Shown here: positions 4,512 to 39,021 of the stretch, piece by piece
How positions within the stretch are numbered: position 1 is the stretch's first letter
How the letters are laid out: every line of letters begins with the position of its first letter
DNA from: a virus
Lineage: Duplodnaviria > Heunggongvirae > Uroviricota > Caudoviricetes
Virus record (IMG/VR): IMGVR_UViG_3300045988_149348
Length of the DNA: 42,988 nt
Direction: 5' to 3' (one strand)
The notes under the pieces: model-generated
What the model saw: only the letters and a program-made list of their open reading frames with translations
Database searches by the model: none
Told to the model about the DNA's origin: nothing
Position numbers and translations under genes: made by a program

Positions 4512-5513
4512 TTAATACCCATTAATTACTCTTCGGACATCAATCGAGGTGGTATAACCACTAGCCCCAATTGAATGCACAGCTTTCGATATAAGATATT
4601 TTCCAGAAAATGAACCGAATCCGTCCAGATTTATAGTTACACCAGCTACCAATCTGGTGTCTCCAACCAATACTAAAGATCCTGTATTTTGATATCTATT
4701 TTTAAGCCGCAAAGCAGCCTTTGCCTTACGTTTTGCTTCATCTAAATTAGCTACCAGTTTTCTTATCTTAAGATTCGACCCTTCTTCTACGGATGGATCT
4801 ACCCAAGTATACGAAAGCGACTTTCTTTTTTTAGGTACGCGATATTTGCACGTGCAACTTTTATACAAATCTGTAGATTGTGTGCTAAAGCTATATCTGA
4901 TTATCTCATCAATACCTAACGTAAGCGTAGCGATAGGATCTTTTTGCTCAAACATCTCTTGAGCAAATATTATTAATTGGCTATCAGTGACCTTTAACGA
5001 CAACCCTTCATCCTGGCAAAGTCGATGGAGAAATTTTAAATCGCTTTCCTCCATTTGATCTTCACGCGCATAATATGGATTACTATCACCATCAATAAGA
5101 AACAACAGTTCAAGGTTAGCTAATTTAGCTATAGAGGTTGCTATATCTTTAAGAGTTGTTTTTTCCCATGCATTACTTTTTAAATCACGTCTAATGCCTG
5201 ATGAAACAGGAACAGAAACAGCAGTCACCTCAACAACAGAAGGTGGTCCAGAGCAAGTTATGCCATCTACCTGGAATTTCCCGCACTCAAGGACGATTTG
5301 ATTTATAGGCTTAAAGCTCAAATCAATAAAATCACCCTTTTTAGGTGTCCAGTCTCCAGACCATTTCCCATCATCATTTTTTAATATAATAGAAATATCA
5401 TCGACCTGACCATCTTCATTATCTGTATAAGACATTGACAAAACATCAGGTGACATATGAGCGGTAATATTTACATTCTGATATATAACATCAAAAAGCG
5501 TTTTACGTAACAC
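4512..5513 (-). CDS. tail protein D-like (late control D / baseplate hub)
   Basis: 333 aa directly downstream of the LysM-like X gene and tape measure; C-terminal G..YTTSIDV pattern as in the GPD family. Confidence 0.55.
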   Translation of the reverse strand: MLRKTLFDVIYQNVNITAHMSPDVLSMSYTDNEDGQVDDISIILKNDDGKWSGDWTPKKGDFIDLSFKPINQIVLECGKFQVDGITCSGPPSVVEVTAVSVPVSSGIRRDLKSNAWEKTTLKDIATSIAKLANLELLFLIDGDSNPYYAREDQMEESDLKFLHRLCQDEGLSLKVTDSQLIIFAQEMFEQKDPIATLTLGIDEIIRYSFSTQSTDLYKSCTCKYRVPKKRKSLSYTWVDPSVEEGSNLKIRKLVANLDEAKRKAKAALRLKNRYQNTGSLVLVGDTRLVAGVTINLDGFGSFSGKYLISKAVHSIGASGYTTSIDVRRVINGY

Positions 5514-5721
5514 TATTGCGTCTCCACGGAGGCAAATTGTTTACTGATATTGGCATAACCGGAGCATCAGGAACTTTAAGAATAATTCCCGCAGAAAAAA
5601 GCACCGTAAAGCGGTGCTCCGTATTAGCATCAATAAGAAGATAAGACAGGTACTCATTACCGTACAACTTTAACGCGATACTATCCCATGAGTCCCCTTG
5701 AACCGTTCTATAATCATCCAA
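5503..5721 (-). CDS. LysM-like tail protein X
   Basis: 72 aa; the TVQGDSWDSIALKLYG...ILKVPD pattern is LysM-like, as in P2 gpX. Confidence 0.55.
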   Translation of the reverse strand: MDDYRTVQGDSWDSIALKLYGNEYLSYLLIDANTEHRFTVLFSAGIILKVPDAPVMPISVNNLPPWRRNSVT

Positions 5722-8506
5722 AACTTAATCTCCGTTGTTGGAACATATGAGCACTCAATTTCTTCTCAAAATCAGAATATCCCGCATCTAATGCTCTTTT
5801 AGCTGCCGCCTCAGTTTCCTTTGGTGAACCAGCCGGAAGATTGATTACAGGTGAATAGGTTATTCCACCAGTCACAGCATTAACGTTCTGGCGAGGTCCA
5901 GAAGTCCCGGCGGCAGATATCCCGTGAGGTGATAAATTTGATTGCCCGAACTTGGTTGCTATTGCATTCTGTAAGCTGTTATTCCTGCTAACGCCTGATG
6001 CCAGAGTAGTCATTATTGCACCACCTGACTTTGTTAGCTGTGAGAATGGACCTTTTTTCGCGTCAGAGAACGGTAAATACTCACGTACAGAAGAAAAAAC
6101 GCCTTTCACTTCATTAATTAAAGCATTTGCTTTTGATTTTATCCCAGTGATTAACGTCTCAATTATTTTTGCGCCTGACTCACTCCAGTTTATTCCAGAC
6201 AAATAAGCCGTTACAGATTGGAATGCTCTTATAAAGAGTCCAACTGGTGAAAAACGCATAAAAAAAGATACCAGTGTATCTATGATTTTCTTTCCTGTTT
6301 CGCTCCAGTTAATACCAGAAAGGTAATTTGTTGTAAGTTTAAATGCTTTAATTAAGAACGGAAGCGGAGACATCCATTTAAAAGCACTAATTAATGTACT
6401 GTAAATTCTTACTCCTGCCGAACTCCAGTTTATGTTGGAAAGATAATCCCATGCTTTACCAAACATAGATATAATCCATCCATTGAGATCAAAGTTTAAG
6501 ATAAAGTTTTTTATAGCTTCAAACGATTTAACTGTATATTCCTTAACAGAAGGCCAAACTCTGACAGCATAATCTCTGATCTTATCCCAGTTCTGATAGA
6601 GCAATATTCCTGCGGCAACCAGCGCAGATATAGCCATCTGAATCCACCCGAAGGGTGTTAGCTTTGTCGCTACAGATAAAGCCAGCATAGCTACCCTACA
6701 CGCTATAACCACACTTTTCATGGTTAGAAACGCACCTGCCGCCATCACAATCTGAGACACAAAATTGGGGTTGTTAGCTACAAATTCACTAATTTTTGTA
6801 ATCAGAGGAACCAAAACACTAAGCGCGGCATTCAAAGCAGGTTGCAAGGCCTGACCAAAACTTAATGATGCATTGCTAGCCTGAATACGTAATTGTTTCA
6901 ATCGCTCCGCATTGTCTTTCGTTATGTTGGCAAAATCGCGGTCAATAACAGCACTTCCAGCACCAAGAGATGTTGCTTTGATTCTCTGGTATTCCTTCCA
7001 GTTTTGAATCATCGGACGAACAAAGTTCTGAACCTGCATATCGCCAAATAGCTCACCAAGTAACTTCTGATCTCCGTTCTTAGTCATTTTCATGACAGAA
7101 TGCATTGCAGCTTCGAATGGATTCTTCCCTTTTTTCTGCGCTGTTGTGACAATTTTATATAAATCTACACCGAAATTTTTCTTTGCTTTTTTTAGTGTTT
7201 CAGGGGAAAGTATTTTCGCCAAAAAGTTGTTCATATTATTAGCAGCCTCATCCGAAGTTGCAGCACCTTTGCGAGCTATCTGCAAAGCTGCCCCCATCGT
7301 CGCGGCGGCTTCTTTACCTCCCATTTTTAATGCCTGGAACTGGGCACCAAGCACAGGAAGATTTTTGGCCATATCTTTAAATTCAAAGTTTCCCTCTTTC
7401 CCTGCCTGAACCAGAATCCCCATTGCAGACTTCATTTGAGATGGATCAATCTTCAATGAGTCACTTAATGTAAATGATGCTTTCGAGACATCGAGGATAT
7501 CAGAGCCAGTAGCTGTAGCTGTTCGCCCAATAGTTAGTAGATTCGCCTGAGCCTCTTTATAATCCTGCCCAGCAGCGACGAGAAAACCCTGAGCAGCCTG
7601 AATATCAGATGCAAACTGGTTGGTAGCCGTTCCGGTAACAAGCATCGCCTGCCCCATCGCCTGAACTTCTTCCGGCTTCATATCTGCCGTAAGACCAATC
7701 ATTTTGTTTTCACGATTGAAATTTGCTGCATTGTTAGCAGCAGCAAATGCACCAGCCGCTACAGCACCAGTTTGTAATCCTGACCTTACAAGTTGACTCT
7801 TTGCCTCACCAAGATGCTCTCGCTTCAATTCACGCTGCCTTTCCAGAGCGCGGTTTAACTCCTCCTGAGCACGTTTTACTGCAAGAACATTTTTCCGTGC
7901 ATCAGCCAACGCATTTTTATAGCTGTTAATTTTATCAATACGTTGTTTTTCTAATGCCCGGTTAAGTTCCTCCTGCTGTTTTTTCACTTGCTGAACATTT
8001 GCTCTGGCTAAAGCCAAAGCCGTTCTGTAGCGGTTAACCTGCTCAACGCTACGGACCTGAGCCTCACGATTACGATCAATGCTGGCTTTAAGCTCTTTCT
8101 CTCTTGAGGCCAAAGCTCTGGCAGATGTATCAGCTCCCTGATAGGCAGACTTTAAAGCGGCCAGTTCTTCACGCTGAGAACGTAGTGATGCTCGTAAATT
8201 CGATGAATGTGTTTTTGCCTTCTCAAAGTCACGAAGCATCGCTCTGGTTGGATTGGCCGTGTTTTTTATTTGCTTCTGTAACTCTTCAACGCGAGCGGCA
8301 GCTTTATGATATTCGAGGGCAGTCTGTCCAACCTTTACTTTTACAGATTGTAGCTTTTGAATTTCCCCATGTTCTTTCGTTAATCCAGCAAGCTCGGCAT
8401 TTAATTTAGCAACAGCCTGATTAGCTGTAGTAAAACTTTTGGGGAGAGAGGCGGCAACTTTGCCACCAATTTCAAAAGCCAGCTTAAAGTTCTTATTGCT
8501 GGCCAT
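5714..8506 (-). CDS. tail tape measure protein
   Basis: 930 aa; coiled-coil N-terminal half with repeated QEELNRALE(K/R)QR units, hydrophobic central segment, three tandem ~35-aa YLSGINWSE.G.KII repeats; located between the chaperone genes and baseplate genes. Confidence 0.85.
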   Translation of the reverse strand: MASNKNFKLAFEIGGKVAASLPKSFTTANQAVAKLNAELAGLTKEHGEIQKLQSVKVKVGQTALEYHKAAARVEELQKQIKNTANPTRAMLRDFEKAKTHSSNLRASLRSQREELAALKSAYQGADTSARALASREKELKASIDRNREAQVRSVEQVNRYRTALALARANVQQVKKQQEELNRALEKQRIDKINSYKNALADARKNVLAVKRAQEELNRALERQRELKREHLGEAKSQLVRSGLQTGAVAAGAFAAANNAANFNRENKMIGLTADMKPEEVQAMGQAMLVTGTATNQFASDIQAAQGFLVAAGQDYKEAQANLLTIGRTATATGSDILDVSKASFTLSDSLKIDPSQMKSAMGILVQAGKEGNFEFKDMAKNLPVLGAQFQALKMGGKEAAATMGAALQIARKGAATSDEAANNMNNFLAKILSPETLKKAKKNFGVDLYKIVTTAQKKGKNPFEAAMHSVMKMTKNGDQKLLGELFGDMQVQNFVRPMIQNWKEYQRIKATSLGAGSAVIDRDFANITKDNAERLKQLRIQASNASLSFGQALQPALNAALSVLVPLITKISEFVANNPNFVSQIVMAAGAFLTMKSVVIACRVAMLALSVATKLTPFGWIQMAISALVAAGILLYQNWDKIRDYAVRVWPSVKEYTVKSFEAIKNFILNFDLNGWIISMFGKAWDYLSNINWSSAGVRIYSTLISAFKWMSPLPFLIKAFKLTTNYLSGINWSETGKKIIDTLVSFFMRFSPVGLFIRAFQSVTAYLSGINWSESGAKIIETLITGIKSKANALINEVKGVFSSVREYLPFSDAKKGPFSQLTKSGGAIMTTLASGVSRNNSLQNAIATKFGQSNLSPHGISAAGTSGPRQNVNAVTGGITYSPVINLPAGSPKETEAAAKRALDAGYSDFEKKLSAHMFQQRRLSFG

Positions 8507-22475: not shown

Positions 22476-23092
22476 ACCTCCCCAGCCAGCAATGCGGATA
22501 CAAATCCGATATAGCTGCCATTATCATCAACATAACGAGACACCGCGCAGTCAAAACGATCCGCTTCCTCATCCGTTGCCGGGATTTTATGACCTCCAAA
22601 TGACAGGTACTGAACTTTTACGCCTGATTTGGCCTCATCCTTCTCAAATGGGATATCCATACCCTCTGTGTCATCGTAGACCGCCGCACTCAATAAGTTA
22701 TCCAGTTCGCGCTGAGTAAAACCAATTGAGTCCAGAGCAAAATCATCGGCCGCAAGATCTGCAAGCTCCGCGCTTAACAACTCTTCATCCCAACCAGCAT
22801 TCAGCGGAATACGGTTGTCGGCCAGACGATATGCCTTCTTCTGATTCTCCGTTAGCCCTTCCAGAACAATGCAGGGAACGTCATCCATCCCCAACTGAGT
22901 GGCCGCAGCAATTCGACCATGACCAGCAATTACAACGTTGTTCTCGTCTATCAGGATCGGATTAGTCCATCCGTACTCCTGTATGCTGGCAACAATCTGA
23001 TCTACCTGCTCCACGGAGTGTGTGCGAGCGTTCTTTTCATAACCAATCAACACAGAAAGTGGTAAAGAAACCACATTAAGATGTTTTGTCAT
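22469..23092 (-). CDS. ParB/Srx N-terminal domain protein (paralog 2)
   Basis: 207 aa; NARTHSVEQVDQIVASIQEYGWTNPILID...IAGHGRIAAA; shares the C-terminal KIPATD motif with paralog 1. Confidence 0.6.
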   Translation of the reverse strand: MTKHLNVVSLPLSVLIGYEKNARTHSVEQVDQIVASIQEYGWTNPILIDENNVVIAGHGRIAAATQLGMDDVPCIVLEGLTENQKKAYRLADNRIPLNAGWDEELLSAELADLAADDFALDSIGFTQRELDNLLSAAVYDDTEGMDIPFEKDEAKSGVKVQYLSFGGHKIPATDEEADRFDCAVSRYVDDNGSYIGFVSALLAGEVC

Positions 23093-23214
23093 GCCGTTTA
23101 TCCGCTAAAATCCCCTCGCTTGTGCAAGCAAGTGGGCCTCGGTTTGTATCCACGGCACCCTGTGGGTATGAATGACTGTCGTCAGGTCGCAACTGACGGC
23201 GGGTGAGAGTGAAT

Positions 23215-23290
23215 TGGTGGCCCCTACCGGATTTGAACCGATGACCGTGCGATTATGAGTCGCCTGCTCTAACCACTGAGCTAAGGGGCC
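23215..23290 (-). tRNA. tRNA with CAU anticodon (Met or Ile2/lysidine type)
   Basis: 76-nt cloverleaf folded by hand: 7-bp acceptor stem, GCTC/GAGC D stem, anticodon loop CUCAUAA, T loop TTCAAAT, 3' CCA encoded. The 5' 42 nt match E. coli ileX-type tRNA as recalled. Confidence 0.8.
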
Positions 23291-23459
23291 ATATTTGATC
23301 TGTTTGTCTGGTGTGGCGCCGCGCACGAAAATCCCAGCCAATAAATTCAGGATTTTTGGGCGCGGCGGCATATCAGACAAACATGGTTGATGCGTGCGCC
23401 CATGAGAAAAGCGCATAGAATGTTGTAACTATATATTTATATAATTATAGAAATATATA

Positions 23460-23669
23460 TTACTTGGGGCAGTTGATTTCCCATGCCCTGTTATGAGCCA
23501 GAATATCTTTCTTTGTCTGGCGGTCCATAACATCGATATCGTGATCAGTCAGGTAGATGGGCTTTACCCAATCACAGGCGGTATCAACCACCACCGGGAC
23601 GCTTCCACGACTCCCGCAGCTCGCGATCAACATCGTCATCAGCCATATGGTTAACACTCTGCTGTACAT
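23460..23669 (-). CDS. o-spanin, Rz1-like lipoprotein
   Basis: 69 aa with lipobox LIASC; overlaps the 3' end of the Rz-like gene in another frame. Confidence 0.55.
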   Translation of the reverse strand: MYSRVLTIWLMTMLIASCGSRGSVPVVVDTACDWVKPIYLTDHDIDVMDRQTKKDILAHNRAWEINCPK

Positions 23670-23862
23670 TCCCCACCTCTTTTGTCACTTCTATACGCCG
23701 CTCCGCAGTGGCTTTTACGGCGGCTGCATTCTCATTAATGCGCTGCTTTTCAGCTTCATCTTCGGCCTTTTCTCGCCCCTTCATACGACCAAAACCAAAC
23801 GCACCGAATGCAACCAATATAACGGTGCCGATAAATGACAAAACGGCTTTCAAACCAGTCAT
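23584..23862 (-). CDS. i-spanin, Rz-like
   Basis: 92 aa; N-terminal transmembrane segment then charged coiled-coil; directly downstream of the endolysin. Confidence 0.55.
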   Translation of the reverse strand: MTGLKAVLSFIGTVILVAFGAFGFGRMKGREKAEDEAEKQRINENAAAVKATAERRIEVTKEVGNVQQSVNHMADDDVDRELRESWKRPGGG

Positions 23863-24401
23863 ACCACCACTCGCTCTTTCATCCAGCCGTAGACAAACGA
23901 CTCATTAGCCTCGCGCTTCTCCGCCAGCTCCAGATAGCGTTCGCCCTGCGTACAGTTCAGCGACGTCAGCATCACCCGTTCGCCGTCTTTTCCCCGATTC
24001 CCAAGATAAGCACGTAGCGCATTAATGGTACGTGGACCGATTCGTCCGTCTGCATCCAAATCGGGATACAGCTTCCCGCGCAGGTTGAACACATTCAGCC
24101 AGCGTTGAAGCATTTTTGACGCCACTGTTGGCCCCATGTTCACCCCCGTGTCACACAGCTCTGCGGCAATATCAGAGGATAATGCGGCCACCTGATCAAA
24201 GCGTGGTCCGTACCAGTAATCAGCCTCAAGGATTTCCAGTGCCTGTTCGCGGGTTAAATCGCGCATATCGCCACGGTATCCATGAGCACGGGCAGTGTTC
24301 TGAGTAATGCCCCACTTTGTTGGGCCTCCCTTGTCGTCAGGGTGATCCACATAGCCGCCCTCTTTTCCAAGAACGCTGTTAAAAATCTCATCTTTGGTCA
24401 T
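23859..24401 (-). CDS. endolysin, GH108-type muramidase with peptidoglycan-binding domain
   Basis: 180 aa; N-terminal EGGYVDHPDDKGGPTKWGIT motif as recalled for glycoside hydrolase family 108 lysins. Confidence 0.7.
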   Translation of the reverse strand: MTKDEIFNSVLGKEGGYVDHPDDKGGPTKWGITQNTARAHGYRGDMRDLTREQALEILEADYWYGPRFDQVAALSSDIAAELCDTGVNMGPTVASKMLQRWLNVFNLRGKLYPDLDADGRIGPRTINALRAYLGNRGKDGERVMLTSLNCTQGERYLELAEKREANESFVYGWMKERVVV

Positions 24402-24684
24402 GATTAAACCCTAATGCGTCAACTATCCGCGCCAGATTGCCCCTGAAATACAGAACAACGATGCAGATAATCAGATTTCCAATAACCACCAGCCAGTGGG
24501 ATTCTTGATAAAGACCGAACACATAACGGAAGGGAACATTGGCGTATACAATGACGTAGATATAAGCCAGAAAGGAAACAAATGGACGATGCCTGGAGTC
24601 TTTCCGTCGATAAAGCATCAGCGCCATTACTATTACTGTGCAAAGCACCGCATTAATCAGTGCTGACGGGTCACTGCTTACCAT
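24388..24684 (-). CDS. membrane protein, holin/antiholin-like
   Basis: Multi-pass hydrophobic ~98-aa ORF (from internal Met) between the holin-like gene and endolysin. Confidence 0.4.
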   Translation of the reverse strand: MVSSDPSALINAVLCTVIVMALMLYRRKDSRHRPFVSFLAYIYVIVYANVPFRYVFGLYQESHWLVVIGNLIICIVVLYFRGNLARIVDALGFNHDQR

Positions 24685-25066
24685 TTGAACCCCCTCCACG
24701 TAAGCGGGAAAGCATTCCAAAGATGCTACCGAGATCCTGGCTGTTTACGAACGTGAGGATTTTAATTGTCAATGCAGCCACAATAACCGCACCAAGTGCA
24801 TCAAGAGGACGATCGTTGTAGCTGGTCCATTTGGCAAGAAATGAGCCAACTAACGGCGCTCCAATCACTCCAACAATGAACGATGTAAAGAAATAGCCAA
24901 TCAGCTTGAGACGGCTAATATTCACCGCTGTAGCAACATAGAAAACAGCGCCAGCAAATGCCCCGAATACAACGCCGTAATCAATACCAGTTGCAATACC
25001 AAAAACGCTGGCACCCATCAGGCCACCAGCAGCAACGGCCGTACCGGAAATTGGTTCTGCTGACAT
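24671..25066 (-). CDS. holin-like membrane protein
   Basis: 131 aa, Gly/Ala-rich transmembrane segments, first gene of the lysis cassette; GAGGA Shine-Dalgarno 5 nt upstream. Confidence 0.5.
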   Translation of the reverse strand: MSAEPISGTAVAAGGLMGASVFGIATGIDYGVVFGAFAGAVFYVATAVNISRLKLIGYFFTSFIVGVIGAPLVGSFLAKWTSYNDRPLDALGAVIVAALTIKILTFVNSQDLGSIFGMLSRLRGGGSNGKQ

Positions 25067-25080
25067 TGAAATCCTCGTTA

Positions 25081-25110
25081 AAAAAAAAGCCCCGCCGAAA
25101 AAGGCAGGGC
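25081..25110 (-). terminator. rho-independent terminator immediately upstream of the holin gene
   Basis: Minus strand: GCCCTGCC-TTTTTC-GGCGGGGC hairpin followed by eight U residues; ends 15 nt before the holin start codon. Confidence 0.7.
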
Positions 25111-25452
25111 TTCATAAAGCAACAAATTACGCGGTAATCGCTTAACGCAGTTTTACTACGTTAAATGAAACACTACACCCAGTTACCACCTAAAACAAGG
25201 TTTCCCCATAAAAAAACCTTCATATCGTGGTTAATCGATCAATAAAAAAGCAATGTTCAACTTTTTACCAACCGAACATCCCGACCAGGACTTCCATAAT
25301 ATTCGCCGATATGCCACTGCTTAAGTTGAGTAATCTTCTCCAACTTAACTCCCATAGAGTCCAGTTTCTGCCATGTTTTCGGTTGTATGTGCTTCATTAC
25401 CCGCTCTGAATATCTGAATACTGCTCGTAAGCGCATGGCTTCTCACTACAGC

Positions 25453-25878
25453 TTATATATGTTCACGACTGGACTTCCAGAATATCCACGCCAGATCAAC
25501 ATTCTGGTCTTGGTAATTCATCCCTTCGTTGGCACGAAGCAATAATGTTTCATGGTTTTTATCACCCGCATGAAACCTGACAAGTGCTTCGAACTTTTCG
25601 CGCCCATCATCCGGCACTACCGCCGTTGGCGGCGCGGAGAATAGAGGTTTAGGTGATATTTCCGCACGTTTTGCGTATGCTTCAACTGTGTCAGGGTTAA
25701 ACAGGATTATGTTTTCACCGCATTCCCACGCTACCGGCTCTGCTTCCAGCGATGCCAGCGCGATACGAAACACATTGGCAAGCAGGCTGCTTGAAGATTG
25801 GTTATCGTGCGCCGGGTCGCTCAGGAAACCAGTGATGAATGATTTAATTTCCGCGTTTTCTCTGGTAATAGTGGTCAT
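25453..25878 (-). CDS. hypothetical protein
   Basis: 141-aa ORF, last gene of the accessory block. Confidence 0.4.
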   Translation of the reverse strand: MTTITRENAEIKSFITGFLSDPAHDNQSSSSLLANVFRIALASLEAEPVAWECGENIILFNPDTVEAYAKRAEISPKPLFSAPPTAVVPDDGREKFEALVRFHAGDKNHETLLLRANEGMNYQDQNVDLAWIFWKSSREHI

Positions 25879-26390
25879 GCCGCGTATCCTTCTTTCTTAT
25901 TAACAATTACACCGTCATATATTTCATTAAGGTGCCCTCTCAACTCCATGCGCCTTAATGCAGATAACATGTAATCGCATTCAACCTGCTTATTCCCAGT
26001 AAATGGCTTATCGTCAGGATTACCCCAACAGCAATTACCCTTGGGCCACCCATGTACTTTCCGTACTCTTCCGTTAACAACGTGAAGCAATCCCCAGCCA
26101 GGCGGTAAATCCTCAACTGAAATAATTCCCGGCTCACTAATAAAGAATCGCCAGTCGCCCATTCCAAGAGACGGATTTTTACGGAAACGCTTTTTTCTAT
26201 CTGCCAACAAGTCAGCACGAGAACACTTCGCCTCTATCAAGCATGATGCTGAATTTCTGAATCCCATAGCATCTGGCTGTTCTCCGGTACTGGTTACAGC
26301 TATAAAGCGGTCATGAAAGCAAACCTTGAACCCGTTGCGCTTAAGGAACTTGTACGCAATCTGACAGAGTTCGCGGTGTGTTAACGCCAT
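25875..26390 (-). CDS. putative PD-(D/E)xK-fold nuclease-like protein
   Basis: 171 aa from ATG 26390 (AAGGAG upstream); D...CLIEAKC arrangement resembles a D-ExK catalytic motif; assignment tentative. Confidence 0.4.
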   Translation of the reverse strand: MALTHRELCQIAYKFLKRNGFKVCFHDRFIAVTSTGEQPDAMGFRNSASCLIEAKCSRADLLADRKKRFRKNPSLGMGDWRFFISEPGIISVEDLPPGWGLLHVVNGRVRKVHGWPKGNCCWGNPDDKPFTGNKQVECDYMLSALRRMELRGHLNEIYDGVIVNKKEGYAA

Positions 26391-26575
26391 CTCACTCTCC
26401 TTTAGTGCGCAGATAACAGTGGTTTTTCCAGCGGTTTTGCGCCGCGCTACGCTTATCTTTGACTCCCTCTCTGGCAATTCCAGAATATAAGTACAACACC
26501 ACACGGCGATTGCTAACTCTCAACCACTGGCTGGGATAGCAACGTCTGTATACACGGGAAATAAGCATCTTTGCT

Positions 26576-26863
26576 TTACGGTTTTTCATCGTTTGCCCCC
26601 TGCTTTTCTGCCCTTAACACCATGCGAGAACCATCATCCAGCTCCCAATTGATTTCACCGCCTTCTGCCATGACAAGATGCCAAACGAGTTGTGCGGCCT
26701 CGTTGGTTACATCACGACCGCGATCATTGCCTACACGGCGTTTTGTTCCGTCACCTAAATCGCGCATTTTGGCCAACACGATGGTTTTTGATAGCGGTGA
26801 AAAACCAAGCTGTAGCCGTGCGGAATTACTCACTGGTTGCCCCCTGAATACGTTTAAACTCAA
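26576..26863 (-). CDS. hypothetical small protein
   Basis: ORF track only; start uncertain. Confidence 0.3.
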   Translation of the reverse strand: MSLNVFRGQPVSNSARLQLGFSPLSKTIVLAKMRDLGDGTKRRVGNDRGRDVTNEAAQLVWHLVMAEGGEINWELDDGSRMVLRAEKQGANDEKP

Positions 26864-27518
26864 TTACCCATACCCACGGGTTAGATAGCCAGTTCTCTTG
26901 CCCGTAAATACCGCGCCAGATATCACCAAAGCCAACGCGATAAACAGCTTCCGGCGGTGTAATCTTGTACGTCGCCGGAGATGCGCCTTCCGCTTTAGCA
27001 TCTGCCTCGCTCATGTCATGCAGCCGTTCCACACGCACGTCGGTAATTTCCAGCAAAATACGCGAAGCCCAGCGCGGCATGTGAATTGATGGACGCCACC
27101 CGCCATCAAACTTTTCATTCACAGTGTGAGGTTTCCAGTCGACATCATCGGGTATCGACCATAAGCCGTAATCACCCTGCTTTTGCTCACAACTGGCCCG
27201 ATAAATCCTTGCTGCGTTCTTCTCATCGCCACGACAAAGGCTGTCGTTCCAGTCCACACTGCAACCATCCTCATTGCCTAATATCGCCCACGCTTCACGG
27301 ACCCATATGCGATCACCAACGTTACCGAACGGGCATAAACCATGTTCCGGTGCATCCATAACGTGGGTATAGACACCATTGCGTTTCTTTGTCGGTTTAC
27401 GGATAACCAGGCAGTTATCGGCCCTGACATTTTTTACAGGTCGGCGAGTCTGCGTCTTCCTGCCTTCGAGGATGGCCCTGACCATCGCATCATTAAAAAT
27501 CATGCCGCGCTCTTTCAT
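26826..27518 (-). CDS. ASCH-domain-like protein
   Basis: N-terminal MIFNDAMVRAILEGRKTQTRR matches the GxKTxExR-type ASCH signature as recalled; start set at an internal Met (27518) to avoid overlap with the upstream gene. Confidence 0.45.
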   Translation of the reverse strand: MKERGMIFNDAMVRAILEGRKTQTRRPVKNVRADNCLVIRKPTKKRNGVYTHVMDAPEHGLCPFGNVGDRIWVREAWAILGNEDGCSVDWNDSLCRGDEKNAARIYRASCEQKQGDYGLWSIPDDVDWKPHTVNEKFDGGWRPSIHMPRWASRILLEITDVRVERLHDMSEADAKAEGASPATYKITPPEAVYRVGFGDIWRGIYGQENWLSNPWVWVIEFKRIQGATSE

Positions 27519-27523
27519 CTTGC

Positions 27524-27889
27524 TCACTTCAACTCCTCCCGACGACGTTCCTGAAGCTCTAGCATTGCGGCTCGGAAATCCTGCCACCATTCCTCATCGG
27601 CTACTGGGGTGTTCCGCTCCAGCACCTTGTCCGCATCGGCGATCAGGTTTGCCAGACTCTTGTCTGAAATCTTCGTTACCGGAGTCGTTGGTTGCTCAAC
27701 CTGCCCGATAGGTTTTATCGTGCTCAAAAGGAGGCGACGGCGGGAAAGAGGTGCCCCACAACGACGGCCATCTTCCTTGCGATATGTTTCTTTCGGACCA
27801 ACACACCAGGTTGTCGGCGTCTCGCGCAACTTCACTTTTTTCTCACCATCATTGGTAATGATTATTCCGGTATGGGTTTTGATGCTCAT
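27524..27889 (-). CDS. hypothetical protein
   Basis: 121-aa ORF, coupled with neighbours. Confidence 0.4.
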   Translation of the reverse strand: MSIKTHTGIIITNDGEKKVKLRETPTTWCVGPKETYRKEDGRRCGAPLSRRRLLLSTIKPIGQVEQPTTPVTKISDKSLANLIADADKVLERNTPVADEEWWQDFRAAMLELQERRREELK

Positions 27890-28167
27890 GCCACAGCCCC
27901 TCTCAACGGCTTAACTTTGGCTAATAAGGTGTTAAACAACATGGAGTTAGGATTCATGCCAAATGGCAATTCCGGTTTAGCGGAGTAGTACAGGCAACCA
28001 TTTATTTTCCTGGTTGTTATCTGTCCTTCGGCAACCATGCTTCTCAGTCTGCAACGCATAGAGTTCTGCGACACACCAATGTGCTCCGCGATTACGTCCA
28101 CTTTTGAACATGGGTGATCGGTCAGGAAATTAATCACATCTTGGGGGTTAATAATTTTGCGTTTCAT
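27886..28167 (-). CDS. small winged-helix DNA-binding protein (putative regulator)
   Basis: 93 aa from ATG 28167; helix-turn-helix-like segment VDVIAEHIGVSQNSMRCRLRSMV; AT-rich motif copy directly upstream. Confidence 0.45.
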   Translation of the reverse strand: MKRKIINPQDVINFLTDHPCSKVDVIAEHIGVSQNSMRCRLRSMVAEGQITTRKINGCLYYSAKPELPFGMNPNSMLFNTLLAKVKPLRGAVA

Positions 28168-28244
28168 TGTCGAGGCGTCCTTATACATTTATATAAATAT
28201 ATAATTCTATATACGGCGGGAGACATCCCGCCGTAGGCTTACTG

Positions 28245-29312
28245 TCAGGCTTTCAATAGCGATTCTTTCAGATATCGGGCATCAGCCAGGGCGTTTGGAG
28301 TAATCTTGCGAACCCATGCATTACGGGTTGGACTCCACTTAAAGGCGCGTGATTTAAGCAGCGAACGAATGTTTGCCTCTGGTTTGCCAGGGAAATAAAA
28401 CAGGATGCGGTTATCCTCTGGATCTATCTCCATAGAAAAGCCGTCGTATTCTTCGCGCTGTGCTCCTGTTACAGACTTGACCGATTCAAGCTCCTTAATA
28501 CGGCTCTGTAGTCGTTTGATTTCGGCGTTATTGTTGCTCAGTGCGTATGAAGGGAATCCGATGCGCCCACAGAAATCTCCGGCCAGTAACTCTTTGGCTT
28601 CGCTTTCTGTAAACCTGAGATCGATTAATGCAGAAAGCTGCTGTAATTGGTCTTTTTTGTATTTGCGAATGGCCTTATTTGCGGCCTTCATTTTGACGTG
28701 TGACTTCATGCAGCCTTGCAGCTTACGAAGCAACTTAAATAGCGCATCAGGATCATCAGACGAAATTCCATTACGACCAACACCTGCGGCTTTGCTCTCG
28801 TAGTGTGATGCTTTACTTTCGCATTCAACAAAGGCTTTTCTGAATAACGCATCAGCTTTAGACAAACGGCGGCGATGGCCTTTCGCGCTATAATGGTCAA
28901 CTAAAATCGGCTGGCCTAACGGGATCACATCCAACAGGTCATGCGCTCGCTTATGCGCTACCGCACCTTCTTTTCTGGCTTTTTCTGCACGAGCAACATA
29001 TCGGGCAAGACGCGCGTTCTGGCGTTCCTGATAGGTGTTTACGTAATCATCTCCGCGCTGCTGCTGTTCAAGCCATGCTTTGCGCAGATCTTCTGTTACG
29101 TCCACCAGCTCCGCAGGGATACAACCAGTTTGGGCTTCATAAGAGTAACCATCCTCATAGATACGCCCATCGTCTTCAACAAAGAAAAAGGTTTCGTGCT
29201 CATCGCTTTTGACCATACGACCATTAACATGGCGTAATAGGTAGCCAGTATCAGTGCTTAACAGGCTGTTAGGGTTGTTGATCCAGTCAGAAATAATTAC
29301 TTGTTTATTCAT
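28245..29312 (-). CDS. hypothetical protein (possibly DUF3560-like)
   Basis: 355-aa ORF, first gene after the Q-like gene; GGAG ribosome-binding site; preceded by copy A of the shared ~100-bp leader. Family assignment from memory only. Confidence 0.5.
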   Translation of the reverse strand: MNKQVIISDWINNPNSLLSTDTGYLLRHVNGRMVKSDEHETFFFVEDDGRIYEDGYSYEAQTGCIPAELVDVTEDLRKAWLEQQQRGDDYVNTYQERQNARLARYVARAEKARKEGAVAHKRAHDLLDVIPLGQPILVDHYSAKGHRRRLSKADALFRKAFVECESKASHYESKAAGVGRNGISSDDPDALFKLLRKLQGCMKSHVKMKAANKAIRKYKKDQLQQLSALIDLRFTESEAKELLAGDFCGRIGFPSYALSNNNAEIKRLQSRIKELESVKSVTGAQREEYDGFSMEIDPEDNRILFYFPGKPEANIRSLLKSRAFKWSPTRNAWVRKITPNALADARYLKESLLKA

Positions 29313-29318
29313 CAGATT

Positions 29319-29420
29319 TCTCCGGTTTAACCAGGGCGGGTATCGCTCGGTTTCGGGTATAACCTTAGGAAATTTTTTCCCACCTGTAAAGCACTTTTTA
29401 TATAAATCTATAATTATATA
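29319..29420 (-). promoter_or_regulatory. duplicated ~100-bp promoter/leader module, copy A (candidate Q-dependent late promoter region)
   Basis: Near-identical to 38909..39021 (3 differences seen by eye); sits between the Q-like stop codon and the next start codon; contains TTTACA-17-TAAGGT and an AT-rich 20-mer. Confidence 0.55.
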
Positions 29421-29481
29421 TTTATAGATTTTCGATGTTCCCGATGTCTACACACCATCAAAACAGCTCAAAATGACACTT

Positions 29482-29859
29482 TCACTCTCTTCTCTTTTTC
29501 AAATAGTCGACAACATACGCCCTGGCTTTTGCCAGCTTCCGGCGATACTGTCTGAGACTAAGAGAAAGGGCGTGGGCTTTATCAATATGCGGTGCATTTA
29601 TGTCGAGGCCCCGAATCTCCCACGCCCCGTATTCAATTCGGACAACCAGCGCCGCAGTCTCATCAACTACCGTGAGGGCCGTCACCGCTCCCTCGATACT
29701 GGTTTCCAGTGAGTCATTTGGTGCGCCGCCCCCTCCGGTAAACTGGCAACGCGTAACCATCATCATTTCTAACATCGACGCGAAACCGCTACGGGCGTTG
29801 CAGCCATTGCGCACCCACAGCGCCCATAGCTCAAACAAGCTATCCAGATCGCGTCTCAC
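29482..29859 (-). CDS. antitermination protein Q-like
   Basis: 125 aa; LFELWALWVRNG and EYGAW motifs resemble the 82/21-type Phage_antitermQ family as recalled; promoter-like repeat directly downstream. Confidence 0.55.
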   Translation of the reverse strand: MRRDLDSLFELWALWVRNGCNARSGFASMLEMMMVTRCQFTGGGGAPNDSLETSIEGAVTALTVVDETAALVVRIEYGAWEIRGLDINAPHIDKAHALSLSLRQYRRKLAKARAYVVDYLKKRRE

Positions 29860-29862
29860 TGT

Positions 29863-30195
29863 TCAGATCTCCCGTATCGTGACGGGATAAAGCGCCTCTA
29901 CCTGCTTTTTCTTCATGATGTAGACGTCTGTTCGCACACCTTTAGTGTCGACACAATCAATCGTCCCATCGTCATAAAACACCATGAAATCAAGTTTATA
30001 AACGACACCACCTGGCAGATTAAAAGGCACCTGCATAAGAAACGTCACAACGCGGCCAGCTTTTCTCAGTAGCTTCAGTTCGCAGTAGTAATCAGCCTCT
30101 TTTTTGCTATCAAAAGCGATATCATCGACAACCGTTTTTTTATTGCCGTATTTGCTTTTCCTGGTCGCTGGTTTGCGAAAGCCGGTATATCTCAT
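29863..30195 (-). CDS. DUF1064-like protein (nin-region type)
   Basis: 110 aa; YGNKKT...FDSKKEADYY...YKLDFMVFY pattern as recalled for DUF1064. Confidence 0.5.
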   Translation of the reverse strand: MRYTGFRKPATRKSKYGNKKTVVDDIAFDSKKEADYYCELKLLRKAGRVVTFLMQVPFNLPGGVVYKLDFMVFYDDGTIDCVDTKGVRTDVYIMKKKQVEALYPVTIREI

Positions 30196-30596
30196 TTGGT
30201 ATCCCCTGGTACTTCACCAAGACTAAGATCAAACCCAATTTCGTCTTTAACTGACTGCGGCAACAGCTCCCACGTCTGCGCACACAAAAATTCATCGGTG
30301 CCATAACGCTCAACAAAGCGAGCACAATTACTCAGGGGAGGGTGACGAACGGCAATATGCGGAGGCACGCGCCCACCACCAGGCACAACACCGCGATGAT
30401 GTGGTGCGCACAACCCAAAGCTATGGAAGTGGCAATTCTCATCAACGCTGCCGTAATCAGGATCGTGATGTAGTTCCGTCCACAGCTCTGGATTCTCAAT
30501 TTCACGGCCATCAATAATGCAAGCTATGCAACCCACGTGAGTGAGCACCGCTTGTATATAAAGTTTCTCTTTCTTCGTTGGTGTACGTCCGTTCAT
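30192..30596 (-). CDS. putative zinc-binding HNH-type nuclease (Ref/NinG-like recombination protein)
   Basis: 134 aa; Cys/His cluster GCIACIIDG...LHHD...CHFHSFGLCAPHH. Confidence 0.4.
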   Translation of the reverse strand: MNGRTPTKKEKLYIQAVLTHVGCIACIIDGREIENPELWTELHHDPDYGSVDENCHFHSFGLCAPHHRGVVPGGGRVPPHIAVRHPPLSNCARFVERYGTDEFLCAQTWELLPQSVKDEIGFDLSLGEVPGDTK

Positions 30597-30829
30597 CAGC
30601 GCCCCTTACCATTGATAAAGAGGTTGAACTCGTTGATTAACTGGACATACATGCTTCTGGCCGCGTAGTTCTTTGCCAGCTCTTTACGGGATGAGATCCC
30701 GCAAAACTCACGCAGAATCACAGAGGCCTCAGAACTGTTTGAAACGTTCTTCCCTGTTTTACTGGTCAGAAAGCGCCAGAATTGGGGATTCTGGCAATGC
30801 ATCGCAGCACCGCGAACATAACTACTCAT
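30596..30829 (-). CDS. hypothetical protein (nin-region)
   Basis: 77-aa ORF, coupled start/stop with neighbours. Confidence 0.4.
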   Translation of the reverse strand: MSSYVRGAAMHCQNPQFWRFLTSKTGKNVSNSSEASVILREFCGISSRKELAKNYAARSMYVQLINEFNLFINGKGR

Positions 30830-31341
30830 TGATGGCCCCCGTCATTTCTGGTGCTTTTCACCGTGCGGCTTCTTAAAAACCTGCCATCACGAACAACAGA
30901 CACTTCTCGTTTACCCAACCTCATTTCACGGCGGTAACATTCAGAAAATGCCTCGTCCGGCATCATATAAATGCGACGCTTCGCCTCCGTATCCAGAAGG
31001 GAACGGCTTGGGGTTACATATAAAAACGACTCATCAATAGGGACAAAACCACGAGCAAGAATTGCTGGCAGAATGCCAGGAAGAACGCAGAAAACAGCTC
31101 CACGATGCAGCAACATCTGGTACTCCATGACCTCCGTTATCCCCGTGACTACTGTTACGGTGTCACGTCTGTTACGGCTGGCAACCAGTCGCTGCACACG
31201 TCCAATTTTCTGATCTACAGATAGATGTTTGCTATCGTTATCAATATGATCGATAACAAATCCTTTAATCGTTTGATCAAGGTAGTGCACCACCTTCGAT
31301 TGAATCTGGTGATTATCACCAAAGAAGGCCAGAATCATCAT
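30826..31341 (-). CDS. hypothetical protein
   Basis: 171-aa ORF in the early operon. Confidence 0.4.
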   Translation of the reverse strand: MMILAFFGDNHQIQSKVVHYLDQTIKGFVIDHIDNDSKHLSVDQKIGRVQRLVASRNRRDTVTVVTGITEVMEYQMLLHRGAVFCVLPGILPAILARGFVPIDESFLYVTPSRSLLDTEAKRRIYMMPDEAFSECYRREMRLGKREVSVVRDGRFLRSRTVKSTRNDGGHQ

Positions 31342-33129: not shown

Positions 33130-33264
33130 CTGCAAGCGGGCTAACGCCCGCTTATATGATTATAGATTTATATAATTATATAAAACGCTTTCCATCCGCC
33201 AAAAAGTTGGTTATGCTTACCTCGTTCTATAAATATAGATTTATAGAATTATATAACCAAACAC

Positions 33265-33933
33265 ATGGAGTCTCGACAAATGACTATCTCTGTAGGTATT
33301 TTCAACGGAAAAGGCGGCGTAACCAAATCAACAATTGCCCGTGCTTTAGCAGTTGCTTATGCAAAGGCTGGCTGGAATGTATGCCTGATCGATATGGATG
33401 TGCTTAACGGAACGGTAACGCGTTGGGTACAACGCAGAATGGCCAACAATATCGAACCAGCAATCGCGGCGCAGCCGTGCGGCACACCATCACAAGTCCA
33501 GAAAATCATCGAATCAGAAGTATACGACCTGGTTATCGTTGATGGCGGTGCCTACGCATCTGAATCAGTACCGAAGCTATCTGAATTTCTGGATATGGTT
33601 ATTTTGCCAACCCGATTCTCTACCGATGACCTGGAAACCACCGTTAACACTGCTCACGGCATCGTTAAAAAGGGTGTGCCAATCAAGAAAATTTGCATGG
33701 TGTTTTCCGGCGCGGCTGAAAATGAAGCTGACTATATTGAAGCCCAAGAGTACCTGGCTAATACGCCATACTTTGTTGTCGATAAGTACATTCCCCACAA
33801 GCCAGCTCTGAGCAAAGCTCAGGATAAGGGCTTAAGCCTCATTGAATGCTCATACGTTGCGCCACGCAAAAAGGCAGACGACGTTATTCAGGGGATTATC
33901 AACCAGCTTGAGGCTCTGACTACTGCCGCGTAA
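33265..33933 (+). CDS. ParA-family partition ATPase (small, type Ib-like)
   Basis: 222 aa; deviant Walker A GKGGVTKST near the N-terminus; followed by a small ribbon-helix-helix-like gene; AT-rich repeats upstream. Confidence 0.7.
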   Translation: MESRQMTISVGIFNGKGGVTKSTIARALAVAYAKAGWNVCLIDMDVLNGTVTRWVQRRMANNIEPAIAAQPCGTPSQVQKIIESEVYDLVIVDGGAYASESVPKLSEFLDMVILPTRFSTDDLETTVNTAHGIVKKGVPIKKICMVFSGAAENEADYIEAQEYLANTPYFVVDKYIPHKPALSKAQDKGLSLIECSYVAPRKKADDVIQGIINQLEALTTAA

Positions 33934-33976
33934 TATATAATTATAGTTTTATAGATTTATATAAGAGGGGATACAC

Positions 33977-34446: not shown

Positions 34447-34469
34447 TAAAAAAGGCCCCCGAAGGGGCC
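34447..34469 (-). terminator. rho-independent terminator (minus-strand orientation)
   Basis: GGCCCC-CGAA-GGGGCC hairpin with an A-run on the plus side, giving a U-run on the minus strand after the small peptide ORF. Confidence 0.55.
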
Positions 34470-34475
34470 TAATCG

Positions 34476-34598
34476 CTACTTGCTGCTAATGTTTATCGTC
34501 ACATTCAGAGCGTTATCAGTAATCTTCCAACCCTCCCCATGTGGCGTAAACAAAGCTCCAGTAACAACGATAAAAATACACATGTAGTATTTTTTCAT
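34476..34598 (-). CDS. small hydrophobic peptide (40 aa), candidate membrane peptide
   Basis: MKKYYMCIFIVVTGALF...; AAGGG 8 nt upstream of ATG 34598; own terminator downstream. Low confidence. Confidence 0.3.
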   Translation of the reverse strand: MKKYYMCIFIVVTGALFTPHGEGWKITDNALNVTINISSK

Positions 34599-34976
34599 TG
34601 TGTGGCCCTTACAGGCCGTTTCACGGCATCCCCACCGACGAAAATGACGCGAGAGCAAGCACGCTGTTTGTGCCTGCGTGGTACGGCAAGTGGATAATCC
34701 TTTCCTGAAAGTCGGTGCCCGGTTGCGAATCGGCGAAAAGGCCCCGCGTAATGTTACACCGCAGCCCCTTCATAATGAAGGGATAAAAATGTATTGTTTT
34801 TCATTAGGTTAAATACACACCACAAAAATCACTCGCTTTTGTGCTCTAATAAACCAAATTTATTTGGACAATTTTATTCAGTTGGGTAAGAATATGGTTG
34901 CTGTTTGTGCTTGCGTGGTTGTATTTATACAACAACGTAATGCTGAAAGGACCGCGAATCCGATCAGCACGAAAGA

Positions 34977-35737: not shown

Positions 35738-35839
35738 TAAATGCGCCATTGGTGGACACTTTCCGAGCCGTAGCAAAATCTACGGTCGGGATTGGAACCC
35801 CGTAGACACAATGGCGCATACCGCGTTAGCGGTTTTTTT
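35738..35839 (+). ncRNA. candidate c4-like antisense regulatory RNA with intrinsic terminator
   Basis: Structured ~100-nt region: GCGCCATTG...CAATGGCGC long-range stem, CCGTAG/CTACGG inner stem, then ACCGC-GTTA-GCGGT plus UUUUUUU terminator (35820..35839). 35789..35817 is complementary in two blocks (CATTGTGTC, GTTCCAA) to 35917..35941 in the downstream leader. Confidence 0.5.
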
Positions 35840-36005
35840 ATGCGTAAAGCACTGCTACACCCAAATTATGGTGGGGCGTGCGGGGGAGTCGTAAGACTCG
35901 CCGGTTCGTCATTGTGTCCGGTAGTTCCAACCCTGCACGTCTCACCACCCAATGATTGGAACCTGACGGTGGTGAGTATCCTTAACCTTTAAGGGAATCA
36001 TCACA

Positions 36006-38908: not shown

Positions 38909-39021
38909 TCTCCGGTTTAACCAGGGCGGGTATCGCTCGGTTTCGGGTATAACCATAGGAAATTTTTTCCCACCTGTAAAGAACCTTTTTATATAAATCT
39001 ATAATTATATAACTCTATGAG
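38909..39021 (-). promoter_or_regulatory. duplicated ~100-bp promoter/leader module, copy B
   Basis: Near-identical to 29319..29420, including the TATAAATCTATAATTATATA 20-mer. Confidence 0.55.

Follow-up and report, generated by a model that had tools for sequence, protein, structure and literature searches.

In the lambdoid phages, a terminator that stands before the holin gene and is overridden by Q is a textbook principle, laid out as pR'-qut-tR'-S in lambda and phage 21. Stx phages have pR' and tR' ahead of their accessory genes, which hence depend on Q. Lambda 6S RNA, AsxR and AgvB are prophage small RNAs that end in a terminator and lie beside the holin operon. In Stx-type prophages, the terminator-ended sRNAs PasA, PasC and PasD1 are reported to adjoin the holin/lysozyme operon typically (2026 preprint). 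The binding element of Q21 consists of two direct TGAGCA repeats between the -35 and the -10 (PMC6606751).

A terminator is found about 45 nt upstream of the holin gene in nearly all IMG/VR prophages with an 82–83% identical holin, and its stems are many and unrelated. Two lambdoid prophages were dissected, one with a lambda-type Q (L035, PF03589) and one with a DUF1133/PF06530 Q (L013), and both show the order Q, promoter, STnc100 RNA (identified with Rfam), one or two terminators, holin. Many lambdoid prophages, L035 included, carry accessory genes in the interval from Q to the holin. A terminator abutting the holin gene, seen both in lambdoid prophages and at the Pas sRNA loci, is therefore the norm in Q-regulated phages. 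In L013 (5950–5998), L035 (5955–5998) and most of L010–L082, a conserved CCCCTC-N-GAGAGG hairpin is present between the terminator and the ribosome-binding site (RBS), AAGAGGGGG; its CCCCTC may pair with GAGGGG of the RBS, which would place the holin of these lambdoid prophages under translational control.

The locus compared here with these systems lies in a 42,988-nt sequence of a tailed virus (Caudoviricetes; IMG/VR record IMGVR_UViG_3300045988_149348), the whole of which is hereafter called the window. It is nearly identical to ~48-kb circular E. coli plasmids and to the Yersinia phages vB_YpM_39/41/44. In the fully annotated relative pP136-7, used here for the layout, an XRE-type repressor is divergent from a long one-directional array, which starts with early genes, a Ref nuclease, DUF1064, the 125-aa Q-like gene, DUF3560 and a variable accessory block, continues with two holins, a GH108 endolysin, a spanin, a tRNA and methyltransferase/ParB genes, and then with terminase, portal, capsid and a P2-like contractile tail; RepA, ParA and a toxin-antitoxin pair are encoded elsewhere. 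This combination of a phage array, whose early region is of lambdoid style, with RepA, ParA and toxin-antitoxin genes identifies the element as a phage-plasmid. The group is a widespread and uncharacterised one of ~48-kb Enterobacteriaceae phage-plasmids, and includes a plasmid of the reference strain E. coli ATCC 25922. Above threshold, Rfam identifies ryfA, isrK and C4 antisense RNA in the window, at 34448–34746 (minus strand), 35767–35839 (plus strand) and 35864–35952 (plus strand); C4 and isrK, also found in the relative L085, point to a P1/P7-type immI-like antisense immunity module. The features of the late control region are the following.

29482–29859, minus strand: Q-like gene encoding 125 aa (phrog_5285), the last conserved gene of the early operon, with remote Q21-family homology
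25453–29312, minus strand: accessory block between the Q-like gene and the terminator (DUF3560, HTH/MarR-like and others), with a content that varies between plasmids
25086–25113, minus strand: terminator stem-loop GAAGCCCUGCC / UUUUUC / GGCGGGGCUUU, from consensus scan, folding, T-run ranking and homologue comparison
25080–25088, minus strand: U9 tract of the terminator, directly after the stem, uninterrupted, on the same strand as all neighbouring genes
25064–25076, minus strand: holin RBS GAGGA (25072–25076) and start codon ATG (25064–25066), read from the sequence
24671–25066, minus strand: holin, Phage_holin_8 (Pfam, E 1.7e-37), the first gene past the terminator
24388–24720, minus strand: second holin-family gene, Phage_holin_3_7 (Pfam)
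23859–24401, minus strand: endolysin, Glyco_hydro_108 and PG_binding_3 (Pfam)
23460–23862, minus strand: probable spanin pair, assigned from sequence features only

A first-pass annotation had described a strong intrinsic terminator abutting the holin RBS, and the present analysis confirms it. On the minus strand, positions 25113–25064 read GAAGCCCTGCC-TTTTTC-GGCGGGGCTTT, followed by the T-run and by AACGAGGATTTCA-ATG. The G+C-rich core of the stem is 8 bp long (25103–25110 paired with 25089–25096, one G-U), and grows to 11 bp by recruiting the first three U; the consensus terminator scan reports the stem at 25113..25086 with 11 pairs, 7 of them G-C, a loop of 6 nt and a T-rich tail. The 8-bp core that had been described therefore stands, but the U8 tract given with it is in fact U9, and the distance from its end to the holin ATG is 13 nt, containing the GAGGA Shine-Dalgarno, rather than 15. 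In the IMG/VR copies of the terminator, the tract is 8–9 T long.

The region 25060–25130 folds with an energy of -24.7 kcal/mol (z = -4.4), which none of 200 shuffles equalled, and the hairpin window alone reaches -20.2 kcal/mol. I also ranked all 210 T-runs of at least five residues, on both strands of the whole window, by the energy of the hairpin just upstream. At least seven T together with a hairpin of -15 kcal/mol or stronger occur only at the terminator site; across 20 dinucleotide-shuffled versions of the window, this combination turned up once overall. It is also by far the strongest of the nine terminator-like sites that the consensus scan returned in 23000–31000. A chance origin of the terminator is excluded. 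Its signal is unidirectional, because on the plus strand the hairpin precedes TTCATAAAGC. From this architecture, the hairpin and U9 tract are predicted to work in vivo as a functional Rho-independent terminator.

Scans of the window show that this is the only strong intrinsic terminator in a ~31-kb co-directional array, which extends from the early promoter region (about 31.9 kb) to the tail genes, with no strong terminator in the 4.4 kb between the Q-like gene and the terminator site. Within the tail operon, a terminator-like hairpin-T6 on the minus strand (5575–5600) was dismissed as a second terminator near 5600, since it is inside a 72-aa LysM/gpX-like ORF (5503–5721). This ORF sits between the tape-measure and gpD genes and is unannotated in the RefSeq relative. 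The large structural genes also contain tandem-like direct repeats, with three 93-nt copies at 415–807 and, in the tape-measure gene, three copies of a 45-nt repeat placed 120 nt apart (6165–6449).

A promoter between the terminator and the holin is impossible, as 13 nt are left there, and the lysis mRNA (holin, endolysin, spanin) can therefore arise only by read-through. The earlier statement that transcription of the lysis genes must pass the terminator thus holds. A promoter in 25111..25452 had been offered as an alternative to antitermination, and a conserved promoter-like core does exist in that interval (25170–25198); such a promoter would nevertheless be upstream of the terminator, and read-through would still be needed. 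A Q-independent promoter downstream of the terminator, named as the observation that would speak against the proposal, is physically excluded by the same gap. The structural genes, which had also been thought to need antitermination, are placed further downstream of the lysis genes, and for these the claim is not sustained. An AT-rich iteron with a TATAGT promoter-like site follows the lysis cassette (23421–23468), so that the structural genes may own a promoter, and in sister plasmids a copy of the 103-bp promoter module described below lies between the lysis and structural genes, in the interval from the MT-A70 gene to the structural genes; the window is without that copy. The spanin pair consists of a 92-aa ORF (23584–23862) and an overlapping 69-aa lipoprotein-like ORF (23460–23669). 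Just past the cassette is a minus-strand tRNA with a CAT anticodon (23215–23290), which ARAGORN assigns to Met; RefSeq labels its homologue tRNA-Ile, presumably of the lysidine type.

The designation of gene 29482..29859 as Q-like gained support once the whole protein family was considered. The 125-aa protein alone has no Pfam match even at E 10, is thus below the Pfam gathering threshold for PF06530 (Phage_antitermQ), and has no PDB sequence match; phrog_5285 is of unannotated function, and the close homologues (at least 57% identity) are all unannotated. An exhaustive profile search yielded 130 family representatives at 50% identity. A profile of 110 members matched the Q21 chains 6jnx/6p18 over 87 positions (E 3.6e-5), the only significant match in the PDB. 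Individually, 20 of the 110 members match phrog_79 and five match phrog_943, both labelled "anti-termination protein Q-like", and weak matches to PF06530 were obtained for 10 (best E 1e-4). In the Q21 fold, N-terminal helices pack on a helix-turn-helix like that of sigma region 4. The AF2 model of the 125-aa protein (pLDDT 77) is all-helical, with residues 23–46 disordered. Foldseek places Q21 in the four best positions and then sigma region 4, with E-values of 0.3–0.9 and TM scores of about 0.5, none of them significant; matches to sigma region 4 and ECF sigma come up nearly as easily as those to Q21. The hhalign comparison of the Q-like family to the low-diversity DUF1133/PF06530 alignment (21% probability, 30 columns) was uninformative. 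From these results, I take the 125-aa protein to be a probable distant relative within the Q21 lineage, one that may act as an antiterminator. This is a first functional hypothesis for phrog_5285 and its about 130 representatives at 50% identity.

In all relatives examined, the conserved early operon ends with the Q-like gene, behind the Ref/DUF1064 genes, and 3–7 kb of variable small genes come next, before the lysis or terminase genes. Because it is found in every one of them, the separation of Q and lysis genes is a family trait. The first-pass annotation had considered the 4.4-kb separation unusual; accessory genes at this place are too common in lambdoid prophages for that, but the layout does differ in that the only strong terminator comes after the accessory block and not beside the Q gene, and this is conserved family-wide. 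The Q-like gene of L083 and that of L087 each overlap the gene that follows. A 12-pair terminator is found 52 nt before the holin in L087, and L088 has two tandem terminators past an upstream stop codon, the second lying 15 nt ahead of the next ATG. L088 independently repeats the argument made above, since its 15-nt gap again has no room for a promoter. Strong co-directional terminators are also present downstream of the Q-like gene in L083, L102 and L103. In L083 (9104–9200), a distant family member, a promoter-like TTAATA-16-TATATT is followed by a strong terminator about 50 nt on and then by small genes; this site is 0.7 kb past the Q-like gene and may be what corresponds to pR'/tR' in that lineage.

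A 431-nt stretch spanning the terminator is present in 70 of 5426 complete E. coli genomes, nearly always on plasmids, with 95–100% identity. In the plasmid of strain ATCC 25922 (NZ_CP009073.1), the match is at 29423–29785. The left boundary of this homology is variable, as illustrated by pMB9272_3, which shares only 25067–25254, joined to another upstream gene, and therefore defines a non-coding block of ~190 nt. This block is kept in E. coli plasmids with or without the small ORF upstream of it. Its elements, and that ORF, are as follows.

25257–25436, minus strand: small ORF of 59 aa (phrog_9594), conserved at the protein level in Klebsiella/Salmonella relatives (58–69% identity)
25067–25254, minus strand: conserved non-coding block ending in the terminator, in single copy in the window, from plasmid and relative comparisons
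25197–25220, minus strand: upstream hairpin AAGG...CCUU followed by GUUUU, with an invariant outer stem and a variable interior
25170–25198, minus strand: putative promoter core, TTGTTT (25193–25198), 17-nt spacer, TAGTGT (25170–25175), a weak match (PWM 6.96)
25143–25163, minus strand: 5' hairpin UAACGUAGU-AAA-ACUGCGUUA of a putative ~85-nt RNA, with an invariant stem

The small ORF is missing from some E. coli plasmids and is unannotated in the RefSeq and PLSDB records examined; a scan of genome contigs with its alignment (25257–25436) gave no match. The best sigma-70 match near the terminator, TTAAGC-17-TATTAT (25296–25324), was rejected as an essential element, because it is inside this ORF and absent from plasmids that keep only 25067–25254 (pMB9272_3). 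Beyond E. coli, PLSDB contains two Salmonella plasmids (L100, L101) with the block at about 71% identity, and a further diverged copy is present in the Klebsiella aerogenes contig L087, which was reached via the Q-like protein. In these three, the block is followed by genes for a 95-aa holin and for a Phage_lysozyme endolysin, neither of which resembles the lysis proteins of the window. The block is therefore part of the phage-plasmid backbone, not of the lysis cassette. It is absent from the family members L083, L085 and L088, and is confined to one subgroup of the family.

An alignment of 5 sequences from 3 genera (three lineages) shows the invariant outer stem of the upstream hairpin, a 57-nt core with 7 variable columns, a variable linker of ~35 nt, and the terminator. 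The right arm and U-tract of the latter are invariant, and the top of its stem is CC/GG in E. coli and CTT/AAG in Klebsiella and Salmonella; these changes are still predicted to pair, but the covariation evidence from three lineages is thin. Each version of the block gives the same two-hairpin fold, with z from -3.9 to -6.0. Within the core, TTGTTT, TAGTGT and the exact 17-nt spacing are invariant in all 5 sequences. Of the variable columns, the spacer contains four, the discriminator two and the hairpin loop one, and the hexamers and hairpin stem none, a placement that would suit a promoter, as a post hoc argument. As a sigma-70 match the core is weak, its PWM score of 6.96 comparing with about 300 sites in the window that score at least 7. 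Should the core act as a promoter, its transcript would run from about 25163 to U9 (25080), as an RNA of ~85 nt predicted to consist of the 5' hairpin, the linker, the terminator hairpin and the U tail. At about +1..+6 of this predicted transcript, TAACGT resembles a -10 element, and the spacer of the core contains GTGGTA and GTGTAG, 11 bp apart. Both recall, as a lead only, the sigma-dependent pause and direct-repeat Q-binding elements of phage 21; no convincing Q-binding or sigma-dependent pause element was found. A boxA/boxB (nut-like) reading of the 5' hairpin was dropped, as its boxA-like part runs into the stem and an N-like gene is not apparent. Rfam, with its prophage sRNA families such as STnc100, AsxR and AgvB, gives nothing at gathering threshold in the block, its sub-threshold E-value matches being driven by the terminator alone, as is the score of the STnc100 model (23.4 bits against a threshold of 47). 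With the core, the scan of viral contigs returned near-identical copies only, and that of genome contigs (core DNA pattern) only chance matches in unrelated phyla.

Other promoters of the array were considered as well. The best minus-strand sigma-70 match between 25 and 30 kb, TTTACA-17-TAAGGT (29362–29390), is found just after the Q-like gene, within a module that occurs twice in the window:

29319–29420, minus strand: copy 1 of the 103-bp promoter module, a candidate Q loading site, from the sigma-70 match and repeat comparison
38909–39011, minus strand: copy 2 of the module, 97% identical to copy 1

In copy 1, TTTACA (29385–29390), 17 nt containing GGAAA-N3-TTTCC, and TAAGGT (29362–29367) lead into the 5'UTR of the DUF3560 gene. 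There are three copies of the module in pP136-7 and two in L087, and with 2–3 copies per genome the TTTACA-17-TAAGGT site was rejected as a unique pR'. The module comprises TTTACA, 17 nt, TAAGGT or TATGGT and a conserved leader to the ATG, and is located ahead of unrelated genes (L002 21603–21704, 28198–28366 and 37101–37202; L087 3711–3813 and 11422–11505), which suggests a co-regulated set of promoters. In L087 and L100, an extra gene separates the Q-like gene from the module. An AT-rich palindrome that follows the Q-like gene (29405–29430) was rejected as a Q-binding element: it recurs upstream of lysis-side genes in L083, and is not Q-specific because it is part of a family of AT iterons with an 8-bp period found at seven sites, including the parA region. 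These iterons are made of TTATATAA/TTATAGAT units, are partly palindromic and intergenic, and lie at 23421–23468, 28173–28212, 29398–29429, 33152–33183, 33225–33264, 33933–33972 and 38981–39020. Two clusters flank the parA region, and the rest accompany sequences that resemble promoters of accessory and late genes; comparable AT-rich repeats stand beside TATAGT hexamers in L088 and L083. A small centromere-binding/repressor protein could bind the iterons and so couple partition to the silencing of phage promoters, for which ParG/omega or the dispersed N15 centromeres would be analogues.

I consider it fairly probable that the terminator is a tR'-type gate before the lysis genes, overridden by a Q21-like antiterminator. 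It would separate the early and accessory genes from the lysis cassette of the ~48-kb circular phage-plasmid. In the plasmid-prophage state, it would stop transcripts from the accessory-gene promoters, as well as those from the promoter-like core of the block, the latter giving the ~85-nt RNA. On induction, the 125-aa Q21-like protein would modify RNA polymerase so that it disregards the hairpin and proceeds into the lysis genes, following the logic of lambda pR'-tR'-S. The conservation of the terminator in front of non-homologous lysis genes counts for this gate, as do its strength and uniqueness, the gap without room for a promoter in L088, the links of the protein family to Q, and the order of Q, promoter, terminator and holin in the lambdoid prophages. 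Against it stand the missing Pfam and PDB matches of the 125-aa protein itself, the weak sigma-70 match of the core, the absence of the block from L083, L085 and L088, and the distance of the Q-like gene from any promoter-terminator pair. Candidates for the Q loading site are the conserved core within the block and the repeated 103-bp module after the Q-like gene. The more specific idea of a "split" Q system, where the Q21-like protein would act 4.4 kb downstream of its own gene at a weak promoter and loading site in the block, is put forward tentatively. The in-block promoter would then make the ~85-nt terminated RNA in the prophage state, possibly doubling as a regulatory sRNA, and the same promoter would feed the lysis genes after induction, with the accessory genes uncoupled from late control.

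A related reading, possible in my view but rather doubtful, is that the block is mainly a stand-alone sRNA gene, which uses its own promoter TTGTTT-17-TAGTGT to make the ~85-nt RNA, with a U-tail that could bind Hfq. Shielding of the holin would then be a by-product, which makes this reading compatible with a gate, and different from it in what selection mainly maintains. Invariant hexamers and an invariant first ~25 nt, followed by a variable middle and a kept terminator, are the conservation expected of an sRNA, and the units fold with z from -3.9 to -6.0. The location is also that of PasA, PasC and PasD1 beside the holin/lysozyme operon (2026 preprint) and of STnc100 in lambdoid relatives. 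However, the weak promoter match, the confinement of the block to one family subgroup, and the lack of any Rfam family at threshold, with sub-threshold matches that are terminator-driven, speak against it.

Whether Q is involved at all may also be questioned. The terminator could be a passive insulator at an operon end, with the lysis genes expressed by leaky read-through once upstream promoters are derepressed, and the 125-aa protein could be another sigma-region-4-like regulator, for instance an activator, and not an antiterminator. The remoteness of the Q21 relation and the Foldseek matches to sigma region 4/ECF sigma would fit this, as would the several dispersed AT-iteron promoters that an activator or repressor could control, and the promoter-like sites that the structural genes seem to have downstream of the lysis cassette. 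I nonetheless regard it as improbable: a hairpin of 11 bp and -20 kcal/mol followed by U9 is expected to terminate efficiently, a leak is hard to square with the two terminators that L088 stacks before the next gene, and where the PDB and PHROG give a significant link to function, it is to Q alone. Finally, by analogy with put of phage HK022, the core and its hairpins might form a cis-acting RNA that makes polymerase terminator-resistant without any protein, so that only transcripts containing the block would reach the holin. The two conserved hairpins and the invariant single-stranded stretch just upstream of the terminator are what such an element could look like, but the conserved hairpin shows no covariation and the block no similarity to any known RNA family, and a constitutive cis-antiterminator right before a terminator would make the latter pointless for upstream transcripts; this is very improbable.

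A terminator before the holin that is overridden by Q, the reading preferred here, is not new as a principle. What is new is its setting, in a phage-plasmid, with a very divergent and unannotated Q-like family and with accessory genes upstream of the late terminator, and with a compact control block, itself conserved, from which a short RNA may be made. If the gate operates as proposed, this 190-nt control region would decide whether the plasmid-prophage lyses its host, and a core that proved to be where Q loads would provide a very divergent example for the comparison of Q-binding and pause elements.

Compared with the switch of lambda and phage 21, the locus likewise has a strong terminator just before the lysis cassette and a long co-directional late array, a probable Q21-lineage protein at the end of the early operon, and possibly a short terminated leader RNA. 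In contrast to that switch, 4.4 kb with a variable accessory block separate the Q-like gene from the terminator; in characterised Q systems the Q gene is adjacent to the promoter-terminator pair, and none is seen beside the Q-like gene here. Q21 has 162 aa, the Q-like protein 125 aa and no PF06530 match, and a TGAGCA repeat element of the Q21 type is absent. The host element is instead a RepA/ParA plasmid-prophage with a P2-like tail. Like PasA, PasC, PasD and STnc100, the block is directly upstream of the holin and ends in a hairpin and U-tract, though without sequence or covariance-model similarity to these sRNAs. The locus shares with Stx phages the insertion of accessory genes between antiterminator gene and holin, but here the only strong terminator follows the accessory block. 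Because of this position, the accessory genes would not need antitermination, and unlike those of Stx phages they would escape Q control.
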